NCBI GenBank assembly: GCA_965214835.1 | Contig: CBDCCK010000002.1 | Coordinates: 928,001 to 992,000 of the forward strand | Source of the DNA: Nitrosopumilaceae archaeon | Lineage (GTDB): Archaea; Thermoproteota; Nitrososphaeria; Nitrososphaerales; Nitrosopumilaceae | Direction: 5' to 3' | DNA length: 64,000 bases | Shown here: positions 33,317 through 57,811 of the stretch, one piece after another | How positions within the stretch are numbered: the first letter of the stretch is position 1 | Layout: every line of letters begins with the position of its first letter | Notes under the pieces: generated by a model | Told to the model about the DNA's origin: nothing | Databases searched by the model: none | What the model saw: the letters and a program-made list of their open reading frames with translations, nothing else | Translations under genes and position numbers: made by a program

Positions 33317-33788
33317 AAAATACCTAAAATGGTGTGCAAAGCAAAGCAAGGGCATCAGGATCGTCAAGGAGTCAAAAAACCTACAGAAGGCATATCTGAA
33401 AAAATCAGAAAATGCCCTAAAATCGATGGAGGTCAATGCAAGAGAAGGTATTGATGAATGGGCAATTTCAGCTAGTTACTATGCAAAATATTTTGCCATC
33501 TATGCACTATTGTCAAGAATAGGCATAAAATGCGAGATACATGACTGTACAATAGTTTTATTTGGTTATCTGTTTTCAGAGGAAATCGCACCTTCAGTCA
33601 TGGGTGACCTTAGGCAATCAAAAGAGGACAGAGTGGAGGCGCAATATTACAGTACAGTCGAGCAGATAGATTCAAAAGAATTGATTGCCAAAACCAAGGA
33701 CTTTGTTCTCAAGATGGAGGAAATAATTGACGGACTAAGCACGCAAAAGATTACATCCCTACAAAGAAAACTTGTGTCTGCATTGTAG
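33303..33788 (+). CDS. HEPN domain toxin
   Basis: WAISASYYAKYFAIYALL..GIKCEIHDC..DRVEAQYY; overlaps the MNT gene. Confidence 0.85.
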   Translation: MQPNEKYLKWCAKQSKGIRIVKESKNLQKAYLKKSENALKSMEVNAREGIDEWAISASYYAKYFAIYALLSRIGIKCEIHDCTIVLFGYLFSEEIAPSVMGDLRQSKEDRVEAQYYSTVEQIDSKELIAKTKDFVLKMEEIIDGLSTQKITSLQRKLVSAL

Positions 33789-33855
33789 TTTTTCTATTCA
33801 GTTTTGTAATAGCAGCTAAGCGAAATGTGAACCGGAAGGACCATAGTATCTATCC

Positions 33856-34953
33856 TATACTGATGATCATTGAAAATTTCGCCTGATTACACGCTGCGCT
33901 CAAGATACTTGTAGATGTCAACCTTGATGGAACACGTCCTAAAGTATTCCGAGACGGCCCTTTTGAGGTGATCTACCGTCTCGTAAAATGCCGATGTAAC
34001 CAGCCTGTACTTGGCATCCTTCCAGACTGCCTCTATGACGCTCAGCTCCGGCCTAGCTACTGGCAGGTACAGCAAGACAACGTCGGGATTTTTCTTTAGG
34101 TATCTGCGGACCTTTCCGGTCCTGTGCTGTGCTGCGTTGTCCATCACAATCAGAACCTTTCCCCACTTTTTGTGCGCCTGCTTGAGATAATGCACAAAGT
34201 TTGCACTGTTGAACTTGTCGTACGTGCGCATCAGCCGGGTTCCGTCGTCTGCAATCGTTCCGTATACCACGACGTGCTCCCTTCTGCCGGATCGTTGCAC
34301 CTCGATCCTGTCCCCCACTGGCGACCAGAACTTTCTGCCGTCCCTTCCCGTACTGACGAATATCGATTCGTCCTGTACGGTTATCCTAAATCCGCGCCTT
34401 TTTGCAAGCTTAATCGCGGTTCTTGCCGCCCCCTGCCACCGTCTTACCGCCTTTGCGTCGGCAGCATCTGCCAGCTTGGTGGTTGACGTCTTTAGCGAGA
34501 ATCCCATCGTGCGCAGGATTCTTCTGATGCTTCCCACGCTGTATGTGACATGCAGCCTGCGGCGCACCCAGTTGCACAGCTTCTTCGGGGTGAGCTTTTC
34601 CATCCTGCGCAACTTTGTGGCGATCTTTTTTATCCTGCTGACTGGAACCTTTGGCTTTCTGCCCCTGTCAGGGGAGTCACGGAGGCCGTCGATGCCGTCA
34701 AGCTCGAATCTATTGATCCACATCTGTACTGTACGCTGTGTCACGTCGGCAATCTCCGCGGTATGTGCGGTGGTGTTGCCAAGCAGCACGGAGCGCACCG
34801 CCATGATTCTGGTATAAACTCTGTTATCCTTTTCGACACACATGGCATCCGTGAGGGTTTTCTTCTTGTTCATGTCAGGATGGCCATGGATGGAGATCTA
34901 TAAACCTTCACAAGGCGTGCAATCAGGCGAAATTTTCAATGATCATCAGTATA
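33856..34953 (-). mobile_element. IS630-family element B, copy 2 (intact, inverted)
   Basis: Same TIRs, TA target. Confidence 0.9.
33887..34873 (-). CDS. IS630 transposase
   Basis: QDES, MDNAAQH, RPELSVIEAVW. Confidence 0.92.
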   Translation of the reverse strand: MNKKKTLTDAMCVEKDNRVYTRIMAVRSVLLGNTTAHTAEIADVTQRTVQMWINRFELDGIDGLRDSPDRGRKPKVPVSRIKKIATKLRRMEKLTPKKLCNWVRRRLHVTYSVGSIRRILRTMGFSLKTSTTKLADAADAKAVRRWQGAARTAIKLAKRRGFRITVQDESIFVSTGRDGRKFWSPVGDRIEVQRSGRREHVVVYGTIADDGTRLMRTYDKFNSANFVHYLKQAHKKWGKVLIVMDNAAQHRTGKVRRYLKKNPDVVLLYLPVARPELSVIEAVWKDAKYRLVTSAFYETVDHLKRAVSEYFRTCSIKVDIYKYLERSV

Positions 34954-35027
34954 GTCAACAGGGGGACGTAACCTCCCATATCAAACGGTGCTGATTCCCT
35001 GCACGGGCCACTGCGAGTGTGCGTTTT

Positions 35028-36123
35028 TCAGTCAGACGCATTCACTAGGCATTCCATCGCTTTATACTTTCTCTGCGTGAGCTCCTTGTTCTGCGTGCGG
35101 TATTCCGTTTCATTGGTCAGCATGTGCCAGATCACCTTTGCAAGCGTTCTGGCCACGGCCACCTTGGCCTTTTGCCTTCCCCTGCGCTTGGCTATTCTAC
35201 TGTACCTTTCACCCATCCTGCTATCGTGCTGCACCGCTACGGTAGCTGCGTTGACAATGGCGTATCGCAGCCATGCAGAGCCGGTCTTGGTTATTGATCC
35301 TCCCCGTACGGTCTCGCCGCTGTTGCGGTGTGACGATATCAGGCCCGCGTATGATGCAAGCTTTTCTGCGGTGGGAAATCTTTGTATGTCTACTATTTCA
35401 GATATTATGGCAAGTGCGATCACGTGGCTTATTCCGGGAACCGTCATCAGGAGCTTGGTTCTGGGATCGTCTCTGCAGATGGTTGCAATCTTGCGCTCAA
35501 ATCCTGCTGCCTGCTGCTGCGTCACTTCAATCCTGTCCAGTCCCGTGCCTATCATCATTTTATCCATCTCCGAGATGTCAGTCCCCGTCGTCCCTGCAGA
35601 GCTCATGCATCCATTGGATTCCCTGTACGGTAAACTTGCCCTTGGTGGGCGGCCTTGCCACATACTTTGCAAGTATTGCAGTTATCTTGTTCTTTTCGGC
35701 TGTTCCCAGGCGTACTGCGTCGATCCTGGCCCTTGAGAGGCCGCGCAGGTCCCTATAGTACCTGTCAGGCACGAACGACTCGTACACCATGTCCATCCTG
35801 AGCAGATCTGCCAGTACCTCCGAGTCTACTTTATCATCCTTTAGCCTTGCCTGCGCTATGGCCCGGGTCTTGGCAGGATGCGCCAGCAGTGTGTCTATTT
35901 GCTTATCCTCAAGCATGTCATGCAGCAGGATCCAGTAGTTCCCCGTTGCCTCACAGACTGCACGGATCTCGTGTCCTGCATATTTCTCGTTGATCCGTCC
36001 GACAAATTTTCTTATTCCGTCGGCCGTGTTGGAAAACTCCGTCTGTTCCAGAATCTTTGCAGTATCGTCCTTGATGGTTGCTACGCACGTCTTTTTATGA
36101 ACGTCTATTCCGATGTTGATCAT
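35028..36123 (-). pseudogene. IS110 DEDD recombinase with a single-base frameshift in the C4 run at 35583-86
   Basis: IGIDVHK, VCEATG, KDDKVDS; VPGIS, LASYAGL, NSG, GSITKTG; AGGAGGTGA RBS. Confidence 0.9.
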
Positions 36124-36149
36124 TGTATCACCTCCTTGTTGATCAAAGT

Positions 36150-36292
36150 GTGTGTGCCCAACTGAACGGAAAACTCCCATTCGCCCTCGATGTGGCATTT
36201 TGTTGTCCGCCTACTCTGAGCCAGTCTCATACACGCCCTCATACGTGGCAAGGTTACTTCGGCTCTTGGGCCCAACATGGAATATATGGCAT
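36150..36292 (-). ncRNA. putative IS110 bridge RNA
   Basis: GCCCAA/TTGGGC basal stem enclosing two internal-loop hairpins; guides GAAGTAACCT and TGTATGAG match the target, ATGGGAG matches the donor; exact RNA ends are inferred. Confidence 0.8.
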
Positions 36293-36327
36293 CCGCTACA
36301 GATAAGATTTGATATAACGTCTCATAC

Positions 36328-36831
36328 AATACTTTAGTAGAAAAGGTCTTGAATGGCTTAATGATTCACTAGAGGATAACAAAGTTAAAACGGCAAAAAT
36401 TCTTGCAGCTAACAACAGAAAGCGGCCCAAATTAATTAACCGCCTAAGGAAGTAACAGCTCGGGCTCTGGAAGTTCAGGCATGAATTTTATCGCCAAAGG
36501 GATCTTCGCAGATGTAATTTGTGTCTAAAATCATAAATCACTTCCAGAGCCCGAGCTGGTACCTAAGGAATCATTTCAAGAAATTTAGAAGTGAAAACAA
36601 AGAAAAAGGAATTTTATGTGAATTAAGAGTGATAATTGATGGCAAACTAGCTTCTAACATTCACGATAGGTGGATAATTACAAAAACACCACCTTCAATG
36701 TACCTTCTACCGATGTTATCGCACGCGGACAATATTCAGAAATAAAAAGAGATGCCAATCGGCCTGATTTTGAATCATGGTGGAACCGATCAGTAGACAT
36801 TTTGGATAAATATAATGAAATCAGTAGATGA
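36328..36831 (+). pseudogene. C-terminal fragment of an AT-rich PLD-like (HDR motif) protein
   Basis: YFSRKGLEWL..RLRNHFKKF..IHDRWIITK/NVPSTDVIARGQYSEI..FESWW; MITE insertion plus A-run frameshift. Confidence 0.7.
36452..36562. mobile_element. 111-bp IS66-type MITE
   Basis: 22/23-bp TIR GTAACAGCTCGGGCTCTGGAAGT; 8-bp duplication CTAAGGAA. Confidence 0.92.
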
Positions 36832-36982
36832 GAGAATATGTAAAAAAGGCCATCCAAGATAACAGGCCTTTGTATCTACCAGTGTTATCAAGATAGTCTA
36901 AATTCCTTGATTTTCTACCTAACTGGGGTGCTTTTCACTTAGTCGAGATCCGACGAAAGGTTTAAAGCTTCACGGGCGATCT

Positions 36983-38398
36983 TTGATTGTGGCAGGGACA
37001 AAGTATGTCGTCAATGACATTGTCAGAAAAGACAGCAGGGACCTGTCCAAATTCATCAAGCCGGAAAGCGTTGCCCTGACAGTCACCTCCCCCCCGTACA
37101 GGAACGCAATCAACTACTCCCAGCATGTCAGGAATGCAGGGAGCAGGCAGGATGCCAGATTCCGGGGTGATGTGGGCCTGACCACTCGCGAATACCTCGA
37201 CGAGATGGAGCAAATCTTCTCGGAGGTCTACAAGGTGACGATTCCGGGTGGTTTCTGCTGCATAGTAATTGGCGACGAGGTAGATAACGGGAGGCTGGTC
37301 CCCCTCCCGAGCCACCTGATCTCACGGCTGGTAAAGGAGGCAGGCAGCGATGACGGATGGAGGCTGAGAGACGTCATAGTGTGGAACAAAGTGACTGCAG
37401 GCAGAAACGGGGCAGGAAACAGGTTTGGAATTTTCATCCAGAACCCGCTGCCCAGCTACTATAGGAGCAACATCATGCACGAGTACATCATTGTGCTCGA
37501 AAAGGGCCCGCAGAGGCGCGAGATTGACAAGCCAAGTACAAAGAAAATCCCCCTCAACAGGGCGATGAAAAGACAGGTCTCACTGTCTGTCTGGGACCTG
37601 CCCGTAGAGGAGGCAGTAAAATCCGAGTCAGGAAAATCAGTATGGGATATCACGCCCGTTCCGCCCAGGGTAATTGACCATCCGGCGGTGTTTCCCGAAC
37701 AGATTCCATGGAGGCTGATCAGCCTTTATTCAAGGGAGGGAGACGTGGTCCTGGATCCCATGAACGGCAGCGGGCAGACGACCAAGGTGGCACATCATCT
37801 CAACCGGGGTTTTATCGGCGTTGACAAAAGACTGCCTTATGTCAGACTGGCCAAAAAGCGCCTCGGGGAGCCATTCATGCTGTCAAACTTTATGATCCCA
37901 GTCTACCTGCCAATCAGCTGGTCTGACAGCGAGGAGTCTGGCAAGAAGGAGGACGCCCACCTGGACATTTCCGGGGTTCCAAGGGGATTCAAGTTCGTTT
38001 TCTCAAAGCAGTATGCAAGGGAGGTCCTGGGGGTGCGGGGAAACTATCTGTATTACAAAAACAAGGATGGCAGATGGATCTGCTACATAATGGCAAGGAG
38101 CAGCCGGCCAACAAGAATCAACATGGGGAGCCTCGCAGATCCAAAATCCCCGTTGAGTGTGGTACTGAACGCGATACCGGCCAAGCGCTTCCACAGGGCC
38201 CAGCTGAGTGAGATGCTGCCTCCAAGACTGGTGGAAAACAGACAGCCGATTGGGGCAGTCATTGACGTCTTGGAGCATGAGGGATTCCTAAAAAATACAG
38301 GCGGGAAGGGGGCAGGCCAGGTCTATGAGCTGGCCGTCCCCGGAAAACACAAGACCGCCCTCTCTCAAGCAAAGCCCGCAAAAAGGAAAAAGCGATGA
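36983..38398 (+). CDS. beta-class amino (probably N4-C) DNA methyltransferase with a C-terminal extension
   Basis: VTSPPY precedes HPAVFP and VLDPMNGSGQT. Confidence 0.9.
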   Translation: MIVAGTKYVVNDIVRKDSRDLSKFIKPESVALTVTSPPYRNAINYSQHVRNAGSRQDARFRGDVGLTTREYLDEMEQIFSEVYKVTIPGGFCCIVIGDEVDNGRLVPLPSHLISRLVKEAGSDDGWRLRDVIVWNKVTAGRNGAGNRFGIFIQNPLPSYYRSNIMHEYIIVLEKGPQRREIDKPSTKKIPLNRAMKRQVSLSVWDLPVEEAVKSESGKSVWDITPVPPRVIDHPAVFPEQIPWRLISLYSREGDVVLDPMNGSGQTTKVAHHLNRGFIGVDKRLPYVRLAKKRLGEPFMLSNFMIPVYLPISWSDSEESGKKEDAHLDISGVPRGFKFVFSKQYAREVLGVRGNYLYYKNKDGRWICYIMARSSRPTRINMGSLADPKSPLSVVLNAIPAKRFHRAQLSEMLPPRLVENRQPIGAVIDVLEHEGFLKNTGGKGAGQVYELAVPGKHKTALSQAKPAKRKKR

Positions 38399-52498: not shown

Positions 52499-52554
52499 AT
52501 GCCACGAAGCGAATCCTTCGCGTGTACGAGGTCACTTGGTTTTGACGTGTTTTG

Positions 52555-52683
52555 GGGGTTGTCGCCTAATTCGCTAGAATCCCCGAAAACCGTTGAGATG
52601 CCATATGATCAGGCGTGCAAAAGGGCGGAAATTCGGAAAAACGTACGGATTGAGTCGGGTAGGTGGAATTAGGCGACAGCCCC
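52555..52683. mobile_element. MITE of about 130 bp (IS256-like ends), copy 1
   Basis: GGGGTTGTCGCCTAATTC...GAATTAGGCGACAGCCCC; 9-bp duplication CGTGTTTTG. Confidence 0.9.
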
Positions 52684-53225
52684 CGTGTTTTGACAACCTG
52701 CGTAACATATTGCGATCATGCTGATCAAATACGATGCCTGTATAGCATCAGCATCATGAAAGGCCGTCGACCCACATACCGCGAACTAGAGGCCACAATC
52801 GTATCATTCACAGACAGAATAAGCACGCTAGAAAATAACCAAAAGGTAATGTGCAGGATGATGAAGGAGAAGGACAGGCGGCTCCGGTACTACGAGAACG
52901 AGAACTCGCCACCGTCTGCAGAATCACTAGAGTACAAGAGGCAAAAGGCGCAGCGGAAAAGGGAGAGGGCTAGTAACCGTGGCAACGGCAGCAACGGCAG
53001 CAGTAGTGGCAACAATAATGGCACCGGCAAAAAGCCGGGAGGCCAGAGGGGCCACAAGGGGACATCCAGAAGACACGACCCACAGAAGACGGTGCTTCAC
53101 ACGTTCCAGGACAACGACGGGACGTGCTCGCCGGTGTGCATGTGCGGGGGGGCCATGGACATAACTGCCCTGATACGGGACATCATCGACTTTGAACCGG
53201 TCAGGATGACAGAGACGCGGCACAT

Positions 53226-54641
53226 CAGTACTTCCTAGATGTACTTTTGCAGACCCGACACGGCACCTCCGCTACTTTCCGCGATCGTTTACAAACGAGT
53301 CGGCCGCATCGACAATGCACGCGACAAACAGCATCATGGTAAACCCCTTCCCTCCTGCAAATCCGTCCCACTTGGATTCCACGTCTATGAACACGGCAGT
53401 CCTCCACAGGTTGTACAGTATGACAGACATATAGAACAGCAGCAGCCTGACGACCGGGGAATTGCTGCACGTCTTGCCCATTATCCCCTTGATCACCCTG
53501 AACCCGGTCTCGATTCCCCACCGACTGCGGTACTCCTCCGGTATCTGCTCAATGACTGCCTCTGCACTTTTAGCAGACATGTTGGTGGCAAAGACCAGAT
53601 ACCTGTCGGCTATGGTCTCTTCTGCCTTGTCCTTCTTTGCTGCTGCCGTGCCGTCCTTTTCTACCTCGTCCTTTTCCACAATGACTAGCCTGAATGTGGC
53701 GCTCTTGCCGTCCTTGTTGGTCATTGTATATTTTGATACCGCACCGCGTTCTCCGCGGTCATGCTCCTCTATTGCCGCCACTATCCTCCTGTTCTTGACG
53801 GCAGGCATGATGTAGCTGCCCGTGCTTGTTTCTGCAGCCCTCATGCAGTCCACGTTAAAGAACCCGCGGTCATACAGGAACGTCTTGATCCTCATCCCTG
53901 ATCTGGACGCCTTGCGGATCATTTTAGGCACGAAATCGGCCAGTTTTGCCTCTTTTGGAAGCTGCAGCGAGGAAAGCACGAGGTCAGACCCGTCATCTGA
54001 TCCTATTCCGTGCATGGTAATGTGCGAGAGAAACGTCGACGTGCCGTTCTTGGGCTTTGACTTTCTGGCGATATCCTCCAGGCCCTTGCCATAGTATTCC
54101 ACGTCGGTAACGTCCACTGCCACGACGTCCGTGTTGTGCAGCATGCCTGACCTGCGGGCGCACCTTACCGTATGCTGCAGCATGGAGCTGCACCACTTTT
54201 GCGCATCATCCAGGCTGACGCCCCGGATCGCCTTTAGGATCCAGTCCGGACTAGGCGTACGGCAACTATACGCGCCGCCCTTGGAGGCAGCCCCGTCGTC
54301 ATGCTGCTGCCTGCTGCATTTTGAGGCCCGCCTGCGAAGGTGCGTCACGGCAGATTCTGCAAACATCCTCCTCTCAGACATGAAATATAGAACGCGCAGT
54401 GCGTCGATGTGGTCATACACTGCGTTGCGACTCTTTGAGACGGCCAGCCCGAGCTTGGGAAACCGCCGTCGCAATGTTTTAAACTGTCTCGATGTTATGT
54501 CAAACTGGTGTGCAAACACGTCGTTTTGTGTTGGTATCATGATGATGGTTGGCACACCGCCTGATCTATAGTATGATGGTCAAAAAATCTCGGCAAATTG
54601 CGTAATTATCGTGCCTGCAAAAGTACATCGAGGAACTACTG
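53226..54641 (-). mobile_element. ISH3-family element, copy 2
   Basis: Same 1416-bp element as 28167..29582; duplication ACAT. Confidence 0.92.
53272..54555 (-). CDS. ISH3/IS4-type transposase
   Basis: Protein identical to 28213..29496. Confidence 0.92.
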   Translation of the reverse strand: MPTIIMIPTQNDVFAHQFDITSRQFKTLRRRFPKLGLAVSKSRNAVYDHIDALRVLYFMSERRMFAESAVTHLRRRASKCSRQQHDDGAASKGGAYSCRTPSPDWILKAIRGVSLDDAQKWCSSMLQHTVRCARRSGMLHNTDVVAVDVTDVEYYGKGLEDIARKSKPKNGTSTFLSHITMHGIGSDDGSDLVLSSLQLPKEAKLADFVPKMIRKASRSGMRIKTFLYDRGFFNVDCMRAAETSTGSYIMPAVKNRRIVAAIEEHDRGERGAVSKYTMTNKDGKSATFRLVIVEKDEVEKDGTAAAKKDKAEETIADRYLVFATNMSAKSAEAVIEQIPEEYRSRWGIETGFRVIKGIMGKTCSNSPVVRLLLFYMSVILYNLWRTAVFIDVESKWDGFAGGKGFTMMLFVACIVDAADSFVNDRGK

Positions 54642-55481
54642 ACATAACCGAGCGTGCCACATGCAGACTGTGCGGCATTATGATATCAGCAGACGACGGA
54701 CTCCCAAGGAGGGGCAGGTACGGCAAGCACATGATCTCCCTTGTGTCTGCCTTGCGCGCAAGGCACATGCCGCTGCAGTCCGTGGCAGACACGCTCAAGG
54801 ATTTTACCGGCAGGAGCATCGCCAAATCGACCGTAATCAACATGATCGGAGGGGTATGCGACTCTATGCAAAAGCCGTCAGGCGCGATCCTGGGCGGCAT
54901 CAAGAGATCATCCAACGTCAGAATAGACGAGACTGCGGCCAACATGAACGGCAGCCGCATATGGACATGGACTGCCGAGACGGACAACGGCGTGTTTGTC
55001 GAGTACAATACGAGCAGGGGCGCACTGTTCCTGGACAGGCACATGGAGGGGTATGGCGGAATAGTGACATCTGACAAGTATTCGGTGTATGACAGGTTCA
55101 ACGGGGAGGACAGGCACCAGCTGTGCTGGTCGCACGAGCTGCGCGTATCAAAATACGCGGCGCAAAAGCAGGGCGCCCCGCTGTTTGCGGGAATACTGTA
55201 CGAGCAGCTTCGGCAGCTGTACCGCAGCGCCGTCAGGGCAGCGAGGAGGAAGGACAGGGGCAAGGATCTGCGCAGAAGGTTCGAGTCCTGGCTGCGCAAC
55301 ATACTGTTCGGGTACCGGGAAAGCACGGACGACCCCGTCCTGGGCCCGGTACTGCGCAGGCTGACAAGCTCGCTGCCGCACCTGTTTACGTTCCTGGAGC
55401 ACGACGGCGTGCATCCCACAAACAACGCCGCAGAGCGTGCCCTCCGTTACGCCGTCGTCTTCCGCAAGATAAGCGGGCAGA

Positions 55482-55573
55482 GTATGTGGTCACGTCCCCC
55501 TGTTGACTAGGCGTGAAAATCATGTCATAGATATCAATTCGTGCCTGATTGGCAGGGGTAGGTGACCTCATAC
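55482..55573. mobile_element. 92-bp IS66-type MITE, copy 1
   Basis: GTATGTGGTCAC...GTGACCTCATAC; 8-bp duplication CGGGCAGA. Confidence 0.93.
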
Positions 55574-55754
55574 CGGGCAGATCAAGGGAGGGGAACTCTG
55601 GATGAGGAGGTGGTCGTGGTTTATGACGTGCATACTGACATGGAGGGCAAGGGGCAGATCCGTAGCAGACGAGGTCATGAAACTGGTTTAGGAACGTGAC
55701 CTCGTACTATCATTGCTGTAAAATGTATATAAACAGAATCCAATACTCAATAAC

Positions 55755-56379: not shown

Positions 56380-56432
56380 CGGCATTCATTAGTGACAAAA
56401 TTCGTGCCTGAACTTCCAGTACGAGCTGTTAC
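56380..56432 (-). mobile_element. solo end of the 111-bp MITE family
   Basis: Reverse complement GTAACAGCTCGTACTGGAAGTTCAGGCACGAATTTT resembles 36452 onward. Confidence 0.7.
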
Positions 56433-56682: not shown

Positions 56683-57811
56683 TTATTGCCAGTCCGAGCA
56701 GGTAGTATCGAGGCCTGGCAGGAGATCCGTCGCTTTCAAAATCCAGAAACACGTCGGTCTTTCCCCTTCGTACATTGGCGCCCCATCCTGGCTTTTTTTA
56801 GCCTTTTTTGTAACAAGGGCATTAACATGCGTAATCATCGATCTGGAAAGTTTCATGCCAAAACCTACATCTGCAAGCCCTCGTTCTCCGGCGTCCCTGA
56901 CATCATGGATCGTGTTAAATCCTGCCTCCTGCAGCATGCCTGCCCGCTGCTTCCCTACCCCGCTGATAAGGCTCAGGCTTCCGTGCTTGATTGCCAATTT
57001 GTTACCGTAACGGAGCCACGGGTGAGATCCTTTGCCGTACGCAGGATCAGGCATCTTCCCGTCCATGATGTCCATTATCTGCCCCAACGAAAACTCAAGA
57101 CGCCCCACCCACTGGTCATACGAGAAGGGGTGCTCTTTTTTATCTCCGTCTATGACGTAAAACACATCTGGAGTGACACCCTGTATTGCCCCGAGCAACC
57201 GGTTGTAAAACGCAGCCTGGAGAACGTGGCCTCGTTTTAGCCGCACGCTCTTGATCTCTTTGATCACGTAGTAGTGATTCCCAAATTCCGATTTTCCGCG
57301 ACGGCGCTCGAGCACGTCGGGCATGCCAAACATGCCATTTGGGAGCGAGATGACAGGAGGGTTTGAGATCATTTTTGTGCCTGCAGCCATTGCGTCAAGG
57401 CCCTGTCTGAACCCGTCACTGAATGTCAGGTATGGCATCTTTTGGGGTATGTGGTCACGTCCCCCTGTTGACTAGGCGTGAAAATCATGTCATAGATATC
57501 AATTCGTGCCTGATTGGCAGGGGTAGGTGACCTCATACCTTTTGGGGAATGCCATATGATTCCTCAACTGTTTTTGCCTCGTAGACATTGCCTGCCTCTG
57601 CCATGGCATCTAGCATTGGATCCGGAGGATCTCTCTCTGCAGGATCCGCATACATGTCGGCCCACAGTGAGAACGGACTGTAATAATGCCTCAGAACGTC
57701 ACTTGCCCTAACGGCCCTGTCCCAATTGCCCGTAGTGTGCCTTGCATGCATTTCGGCTAGATCCGCCGGTCGAGGCACATTCCTGACCATATCAAAAATC
57801 TCATTTGCCAT
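56683..57811 (-). pseudogene. TM0106-like RecB-family nuclease, split by a MITE and truncated
   Basis: GMPDVL..KEIK..LQAAFY, HhH ISGVG; rejoins GIPQK|MPYL. Confidence 0.8.
57447..57538. mobile_element. 92-bp IS66-type MITE, copy 2 (identical to copy 1)
   Basis: 8-bp duplication CTTTTGGG. Confidence 0.93.

Follow-up and report, generated by a model that had tools for sequence, protein, structure and literature searches.

Within the 64,000-nt stretch analysed here (the window; positions 928,001 to 992,000 of contig CBDCCK010000002.1 of a Nitrosopumilaceae archaeon), positions 34975-36322 are occupied by a DEDD recombinase element that interrupts the terminus of an IS66-type element. Comparison of its ends, its non-coding region and its relatives makes it very probable that this is an RNA-guided archaeal insertion sequence (IS) of the IS1111 type, that its guides specify the IS66-family end, and that the window copy has decayed. 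Coordinates are window positions unless prefixed G000 (the genome of the window), G003 and so on, and those of the individual features are collected in Table 1. An archaeal host had been proposed in the initial annotation, and the ribosomal RNAs of the host genome do score best with archaeal Rfam models (1452.6 bits for the small subunit, SSU).

The plus strand reads GTCAACAGGGGGACGTAAC (34954-34972), CT and CCCATATCAAACGG at one side of the element, and GATATAACGT, CT (36321-36322) and then CATACAAT at the other. The element thus begins with CCCATATC on this strand and its other extreme is GATATAACGT-CT, followed by CATAC at 36323-36327. A CT is present at both junctions of the three full-length copies in the genome, the exception being one right-end junction that lacks the T. 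Deleting the element plus one CT yields GTCAACAGGGGGACGTAACCTCATAC, and the end rebuilt in this way (reverse complement, GTATGAGGTTACGTCCCCCTGTTGAC) is identical at 24 of 26 positions to the ends of two MITEs (miniature transposable elements with inverted repeats) at 55482 and 57447 (GTATGTGGTCACGTCCCCCTGTTGAC). The earlier claim that removal of the element restores an IS66/MITE end is therefore borne out. The word ACGTCCCCCTGTTGAC occurs three times in the window, against 0.05 occurrences expected. In keeping with the IS110 family, the element lacks terminal inverted repeats (TIRs), has a short common core and shows the same orientation in all junctions.

A non-coding region (NCR) of about 200 nt lies upstream of the recombinase gene, and 53 nt lie downstream. 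On the minus strand, positions 36266-36218 of the NCR read GAGCC-GAAGTAACCT-TGCC-ACGTATGAG-GGCG-TGTATGAG-ACT-GGCTC. Within this segment GAAGTAACCT agrees with the left target plus core (GACGTAACCT) at 9 of 10 positions, while TGTATGAG is the exact reverse complement of the core plus right target (CTCATACA). Mononucleotide shuffling of the 194-nt NCR (20000 rounds) gave a 9/10 match in 97 cases and an 8/8 match in 68, with both together in none, and shuffles of the window likewise failed to reproduce the guide match. The layout of target matches first described in the initial annotation thus withstands this comparison.

A BLAST search of the element against its own genome returned the three full-length copies and about twenty pieces. 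At 16 left-end junctions the sequence that follows is CATAC (7), CATGC (1) or CTTAC (4), so that C[AT]T[AG]C is found in 12 of the 16, the remaining four belonging to a diverged subfamily C; all five right-end junctions adjoin the inner portion of an IS66-type end. Other copies thus lie in the same motif, allowing for these variants of CATAC, apart from the four of subfamily C, which lie elsewhere. Subfamily A comprises the window copy and a twin at G000:C2:1650574-1652022, with predicted guides GTAACCT and TGTATGAG and the site GT(A/G)AC-CT-CATAC. Subfamily B (G000:C2:311703-313052) is 90% identical and has an intact open reading frame (ORF) of 365 aa at G000:C2:311759-312853; its predicted guides are GTAAACT and CGTAAGAG, and it occupies GGGGTAAA-CT-CTTACGG, that is, a second IS66 end, GTAAA-CT-CTTAC. 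In total, G000 contains 16 matches to the RNA model described below, five right-end junctions and one intact recombinase ORF, RNA-bearing left-end pieces being far commoner.

Guides and flanks were compared across homologues at 34 junctions from 12 genomes, representing 19 distinct 3' guides, with poor fits kept in the counts. The six non-core positions of the 3' guide match the six bases to the left of the element at a mean of 4.41/6 for cognate pairs and 1.42/6 for non-cognate pairs. When one pair was taken per guide, 82 of 114 positions matched; shuffled pairings gave a mean of 32.7 and a maximum of 59, and none of 100000 shuffles was as good. Covariation of guides and flanks in homologues from other genomes, which the initial annotation had put forward as a check, is thus observed. 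For the 5' guide, the match to the right-end flank is 7/8 in A and in B, 7/8 and 6/8 in the G003 copies and 5/8 in G078; in the two G004 copies it is 3/8 (7/8 upon a 1-nt register shift) and 4/8. Lineages that are 57-60% identical in protein occupy unrelated sequences, each matching its own guide. Taken together, these comparative data support RNA guidance.

Two distant homologues in G110 (L075 and L085) have the dinucleotide TG, not AG, both at the end of the 3' guide and at the start of the element, which suggests a different, covarying core dinucleotide. A search for related loci in genome contigs found a single relative (L029, 83%), the flank of which resembles a remnant of the inner loop and 3' guide of another copy. 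At L031 (G003:C3:935796-939842) the first 95 nt of a further left end, which break off exactly after the 3' guide (ACCGGCAG), stand in front of a complete element. The DNA that encodes the 3' guide is a half-site itself and seems to serve as a landing or recombination point.

The structure of the putative RNA was derived from an alignment of 14 left ends from five genomes. The predicted fold consists of five helices: one stem closes the whole, and the target loop and the donor loop each have a stem of their own that contains an inner hairpin. Its covariation score was reached by none of 500 shuffles, and registers slid along the alignment are only 24-50% paired. U-G pairs occur solely on the recombinase strand, and we therefore take this strand to be that of the RNA. 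Variation within the conserved scaffold forms islands that coincide exactly with the two target guides and the 5' donor segment. By contrast with these, the 8-mer AATGGGAG, which equals the right end of the element, is identical in 28 of 36 aligned homologues, and the right end ...ATATGGGAG is present in all seven right ends found. The 5' donor segment reads AAC, AGC or GGGGT and goes with the left ends TAACGT (A and B), TAGCGT (C) and AGGGT (G003), respectively. With a covariance model built on the fold, the RNA was detected in 13 out of 121 related genomes, in every case next to such an element or as a remnant of one. Two other readings of this region were considered and rejected. Transcription from the plus strand would turn the U-G pairs into A-C mismatches and leave the guides bearing the core at their 5' side, and the inner hairpin loop ACGTATGAG was dismissed as a second right-target guide because it is unchanged in subfamily B.

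The recombinase might instead recognise the IS66 end by itself, the matching words in the NCR being by-products, such as captured target sequence, with no guide RNA at work. The length and conservation of IS66 ends would allow a protein to read them. The words, however, stand at fixed places in a covarying fold, and over the 19 guide variants they change with the flank against a protein scaffold that remains related; lineages as similar in protein as those above land in unrelated sequences that match their own guides. Moreover, two published studies report that the guide geometry and the RNA-guided mechanism are experimentally proven for members of this family (PMC11208160, PMC11187229), so the same logic has a demonstrated basis. 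We regard recognition by protein alone as extremely improbable, and guidance by RNA is adopted in what follows.

Table 1 Features of the element, its target and the comparators in the window
Feature	Position	Strand	Remarks
Putative IS1111-type (IS110-family) element, subfamily A	34975..36322	-	1348 bp with one core counted; frameshifted; both DEDD Pfam domains
Left target	34954..34972	-	Inner portion of IS66-type terminal inverted repeat; GTCAACAGGGGGACGTAAC on plus strand
Target-side core dinucleotide	34973..34974	.	CT (AG in element sense); from junction comparison
Right end	34975..34985	-	3-bp extension (GGG in element sense) plus subterminal inverted repeat TTTGATAT at 34978-34985
Left end	36308..36322	-	7-bp extension AGACGTT (core AG included) plus subterminal inverted repeat ATATCAAA at 36308-36315
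Right target	36323..36327	-	Outer five bases of IS66-type end, CATAC on plus and GTATG on minus strand; severed from the remaining end by the insertion
Predicted bridge/seekRNA fold	36154..36273	-	26 base pairs, 8 of them with compensatory changes; 94.5% of cells paired, against 24-50% in slid controls
Predicted 5' target guide, GAAGTAACCT	36251..36260	-	Sense of plus strand GACGTAAC-CT; complements element-sense strand of right flank; 9/10
Predicted 3' target guide, TGTATGAG	36226..36233	-	Equals element-sense left flank plus core; 8/8
Predicted 3' donor guide, AATGGGAG	36174..36181	-	Matches right end TATGGGAG including core; 7/8
5' donor-loop segment, CAACAAAA, weak putative donor guide	36198..36205	-	Just AAC(G) matches left end TAACGT
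N-terminal recombinase fragment	35578..36123	-	DEDD_Tnp_IS110, RuvC-like; ATG at 36123-36121 behind AAGGAGGTGAT
C-terminal recombinase fragment	35028..35672	-	Transposase_20, with GL-P----SG serine motif
Frameshift site	35570..35586	-	One codon short of two bases relative to the intact subfamily-B gene
IS630-family element	33856..34953	-	1098 bp; TIRs of 33 bp, perfect; flanked by TA at either end; inserted at a TA that lies 26 bp within the same IS66-type end
Comparator MITE	55482..55572	+	91 bp; IS66-type ends; unoccupied GTGAC-CT-CATAC at right end; target-site duplication CGGGCAGA
Comparator MITE, second copy	57447..57537	+	Same 91-bp MITE; target-site duplication CTTTTGGG

The target can be assigned to the IS66 family. 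Elements of 1.6 kb bounded by GTATGWGGTCAC...GTGACCTCATAC and flanked by 8-bp target-site duplications (TSDs) encode transposases with the PF03050 (DDE_Tnp_IS66) domain, as do elements bounded by GTAAGAGTTTAC...(G/T)AAACTCTTAC. PF03050 was identified in all four proteins tested (E 5e-30 to 6e-36), and one long ORF was seen per element. The TIRs of IS66 elements typically begin GTAA; here a DDE_Tnp_IS66 transposase, an 8-bp target duplication and a TIR starting with GTA are found together, in agreement with the initial proposal that the termini of IS66-family IS and MITEs are the target. Loose patterns find 149 and 141 ends of the GTATGWGGTCAC...GTGACCTCATAC type, 82 of them paired at MITE distance. 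Unoccupied exact 12-mers number 45 for GTGACCTCATAC and 45 for GTAAACTCTTAC, where fewer than approximately 3 would be expected. No inverted partner that could form the opposite end of the targeted element was found near 33.0-33.9 kb. Beyond the insertion of an IS630-family element into it, the targeted end shares just ~30 nt with the MITE and is therefore taken to be a solo or rearranged end.

Two overlapping minus-strand ORFs constitute the halves of the DEDD recombinase, split by a frameshift. They match PF01548 (E 1.1e-28, profile positions 1-153 of 155) and PF02371 (E 1.2e-24), and the closest solved structures are those of IS621 (E 4e-14, PDB 8wt6), for which the alignment spans the SG motif, and ISCro4. 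At the lesion, subfamily B reads GDHDMSEMD and A reads GD, a stop or shift, and DISEMD. The 2-nt deletion responsible is common to the window copy and its twin (G000:C2:1650574-1652022). Because of this frameshift the window copy is non-autonomous; the subfamily A lineage as a whole is non-autonomous, and the window copy is a dead passenger. The twin is in addition interrupted at G000:C2:1651218-1651310 by a 94-bp MITE of the targeted family (TSD GATAACTG), so that target and targeter insert into one another.

From these features we propose the following mechanism. The upstream NCR would encode a bridge/seekRNA of ~120-150 nt on the recombinase strand, in which a shared closing stem encloses two internal loops. 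The first of these carries a 5' segment (GAAGTAAC-CT) and a 3' segment (TGTATG-AG), which would both terminate on the core and jointly specify a 12-14-bp site, GTRAC-CT-CATAC(A), corresponding to the last 12 bp of the TIR of the multicopy IS66-family IS and of its 91-bp MITEs. In the second loop, the 3' segment (AATGGG-AG) would specify the right end of the element itself. By analogy with IS621 and ISEc11, the RNA-bound DEDD/serine recombinase may then use the CT core to recombine the target with the junction of the excised circle (..ATAACGT-CT-CCCATATC..). Recombination at this core would account for the single orientation, the position 5 bp inside the IS66 end and the absence of duplication beyond the core. 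Sister lineages in the genome appear to have altered the guide segments only, directing B to GTAAA-CT-CTTAC and C to other repeat elements. In view of the deletion that they share, the window copy and its twin could be moved only by an enzyme supplied in trans, most plausibly that of subfamily B, the ends and donor loop of which are nearly the same. The most likely pay-off of this choice of site is a safe, multicopy and non-essential landing pad.

Several observations weigh against this proposal. The most distal position of the 3' guide matches in just 6 of the 34 junctions, and the working guide is therefore taken to comprise five bases plus the core. Guide-flank fits are weak at L065 (2/6), C_1917218 (2/6) and G010 (3/6); for G010 (L033/L067) no convincing guide-flank match (3/6) and no right end was found. 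The 5' donor-loop segment matches the left end at only 3-5 nt, albeit in a covarying manner, and leaves the core unmatched, unlike in IS621. Although folding of the NCR, suggested in the initial annotation, succeeds comparatively, as described above, the single-sequence fold of 36150-36280 is unremarkable (z -0.62) and the minimum-free-energy structure differs from the comparative one, in agreement with separate folding calculations. A search of 34000-37500 with Rfam at E values up to 10 matched no family. Discrimination between A and B is leaky, in that four fragments (genome positions 1681720, 1876248, 1909303 and 2365837) mix the 3' guide of one type with the flank of the other, a difference of 1 nt. 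Against the common GTGAC ends the A guide (GTAAC) has one mismatch, and ~90 sites with a perfect or nearly perfect fit stand empty, from which we conclude that activity is low or past. The window copy is frameshifted, as described above, and its twin is broken further by the MITE. Finally, contigs of four DNA runs over 33700-36700 are short, repeat-broken pieces, too fragmented to reveal an empty site or a circle junction. Separately, one contig of one DNA run shows an 87-nt skip within the NCR.

The use of other repeats as landing sites extends to relatives of the element. The G003 site, CCGGC-AG-AATAGG, is formed by the final 13 bp of a repeated element, and the G004 site lies 11-16 bp within a MITE. 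A subfamily-C copy at G000:C2:1909552, with predicted guides TGTGATCT and TTTTATAG, occupies a GATCT-ATAAAC motif of an IS630 element, and the site predicted from another C guide, TCGTCA-CT-ATAGGA, is the end of a further repeat family. These sites support the view that the relatives habitually land on other mobile elements. Within the window, GGAGAT-CT-ATAAACC at 34892-34906, between the IS630 transposase start and the TIR, is an unoccupied site of the subfamily-C type, and the genome has 27 occurrences of GATCTATAAAC, spread over three or more repeat families. It can be suggested tentatively, as a possibility that we hold to be rather less than even, that a whole clade of IS1111-type elements in this archaeal family parasitises other transposons, its lineages differing mainly in their guides and each aiming slightly inside the terminus, or at a subterminal motif, of a different IS or MITE family (in this genome an IS630 subterminal site, a TCGTCACTATAGG-ended repeat and two IS66 ends, and in two sister genomes other repeats), that RNA-bearing left-end remnants serve as a library of trans-acting guides for a single enzyme, and that the insertions silence the transposon ends that host them.

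Splitting the terminal 5 bp from an IS66 end should inactivate that end for as long as the element stays. This consequence raises the question of whether the element is a dedicated anti-transposon device, selected for disabling IS66 elements and MITEs, as opposed to a selfish user of safe harbours. Such a device would fit the severed end, and also the fact that relatives (G003, G004 and subfamily C) likewise target other repeats, at their termini or in subterminal parts. Set against this, there are ~17 junctions compared with ~90 exact empty sites and ~290 loosely matching ends, a member of the MITE family has itself inserted into a copy of the element, and precise excision would be expected to restore the end. 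Targeting of multicopy repeats (repetitive extragenic palindromes (REP), attC, Tn21 ends and IS3 genes) is moreover common in the family and is usually read as a choice of safe sites. We therefore consider a dedicated defence unlikely and favour a selfish element that uses IS66 ends as a harbour.

The locus is also notable for its nesting, with three transposon layers (IS66-type end, IS630 element and DEDD element) in 2.5 kb. The gene directly to the left (33887-34873, minus strand) does not belong to the IS66 element but encodes an IS630-family transposase of 328 aa with DDE_3 and HTH domains. To the right of the site, a MITE-like unit with inverted ends AGCTCGGGCTCTGGAAGT... spans 36440-36575, and a similar end is present at 56400-56430. 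Summed depth is by far greatest in the contig bin 36427-36527, and in two runs a form occurs here that lacks ~135-139 nt. Further along, an IS66-family element with GTACGAGGTCAC ends (52524-55707) is broken by a 427-aa transposase gene on the opposite strand (53272-54555) and by a MITE. The MITE at 55482-55572 splits the C-terminus of an IS66 transposase ORF (54611-55510), and that at 57447-57537 lies at the border of two minus-strand ORFs (56683-57438 and 57533-57811).

To place the element among known systems, its features were set beside published descriptions. The guides of IS621 are arranged so that the 5' one copies the left flank and the 3' one is complementary to the right flank, the RNA being sense to that strand (PMC11208160, PMC11208158). 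The remaining descriptions are from PMC11187229, where IS1111 elements are stated to be abundant in bacteria and archaea. Their hallmark is subterminal inverted repeats, usually of 11-13 bp, with extensions of 7 bp on the left and 3 bp on the right, and these long repeats distinguish them from the IS110 group, which has 2-3 bp. In IS1111-type seekRNAs the segment complementary to the top strand lies 5' of that complementary to the bottom strand, and in most cases the long NCR sits downstream of tnp, which encodes the transposase, an upstream position being confined to rare exceptions such as ISMtsp17. The present element belongs to the IS110 family in the ISfinder sense, having PF01548 and PF02371 with the conserved serine and an NCR with guides whose structure is predicted comparatively. 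It has the 7/3-bp extensions (AGACGTT + ATATCAAA ... TTTGATAT + GGG), the 8-bp repeat lying at the short end of the range; the repeat is 9-10 bp in B and 11 bp in G003. The guide order is likewise that of IS1111, the 3' guide equalling the left flank and the 5' guide complementing the right flank in element sense. The intact subfamily-B recombinase carries GLVPSHRNSG, which fits the motif GL-P----S(t)G, and with 365 aa exceeds the 330-350 aa of the IS1111 group. The NCR, by contrast, is upstream and not downstream of tnp. A tblastn search of plasmids with the recombinase gave matches labelled only 'IS110 family', labels by which the IS1111 and IS110 groups are not separable. On the basis of guide order, 7/3-bp ends and GL-P----SG we have therefore filed the element as a putative IS1111-type element with an upstream RNA gene.

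The initial annotation had described an IS110/IS621 bridge-RNA layout, with the 5' guide directed at the left flank and the 3' guide at the right. The IS110-family membership and the structured guide region upstream of the recombinase, as in the IS110 group, stand. Each loop, too, consists of a stem, a guide, a stem-loop and a guide, both guides terminate on the core as in IS621, and the closest solved structures are those named above. The guide order is nevertheless opposite to that of IS621 and ISEc21, being reversed relative to the element and the same as in IS1111-type seekRNAs; the left donor guide lacks core pairing; the subterminal inverted repeat of 8-11 bp with its 7-bp and 3-bp extensions departs from the 2-3 bp of the IS110 group; and the recombinase carries GL-P----SG. 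An IS621-type element of the IS110 group is, in our judgement, decidedly unlikely, and assignment to the IS1111 type is preferred.

The locus leaves the known mechanism unchanged and would provide a natural example of established RNA-guided targeting. It would represent a natural and replicated case of guide reprogramming in an archaeon, in which sister lineages in one genome carry differing guides and occupy different transposon ends; the same comparative signature led to bridge/seekRNAs in bacteria. The combination of an IS1111-type guide order with an upstream RNA gene is rare. IS66 ends and MITEs would join Tn21 ends, IS3 genes, attC and REP among mobile-element targets, and the intact 365-aa subfamily-B enzyme with its RNA offers a testable candidate archaeal bridge recombinase. 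Literature searches and a 2026 survey of archaeal IS, covered in part, turned up neither this element nor an archaeal bridge RNA, and nothing on IS66 ends as a target. The idea itself has precedents, in that ISEc21 and IS4321/IS5075 already direct themselves to other mobile elements.

Among these known systems, IS4321 and IS5075 insert in the TIRs of Tn21 (target logo in PMC11187229). Like the present element, they are DEDD elements with subterminal inverted repeats that take a fixed position and orientation in the TIR of another transposon family; theirs is a bacterial plasmid setting with the long NCR downstream of tnp, whereas here the host is an archaeon, the target is IS66 IS and MITE ends, and the NCR is upstream. 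ISEc21, an IS110-group element with an experimentally shown seekRNA, targets conserved codons in IS3-family transposase genes and has a naturally retargeted relative, ISMch6 (PMC11187229). It resembles the element in its upstream guide-encoding NCR and in having another IS family as its natural target, and differs in its bottom-then-top guide order, the lack of a long subterminal repeat and a target in a coding region rather than a terminus. ISMtsp17, compared by description only, likewise pairs an IS1111-type transposase with an upstream NCR (PMC11187229). With IS621 the element shares the predicted two-loop RNA, in which each loop is built of stem, guide, stem-loop and guide and both guides include the core, as well as the RuvC-like DEDD and Tnp domains and a CT core on the strand mimicked by the 5' guide. 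Unlike in IS621, the element is inverted with respect to the polarity defined by its guides, so that the RNA gene adjoins the 'left donor' and is antisense to the CT strand; its subterminal repeats are long, and it has a weak left-donor guide. IS621 uses a promoter of the sigma-70 kind that is reassembled when the circle junction forms, an arrangement inapplicable in an archaeon; for the present element, TTATATC within the left subterminal repeat is a candidate TATA box. The element raises the question of how such an RNA is transcribed without a sigma-70 junction promoter.

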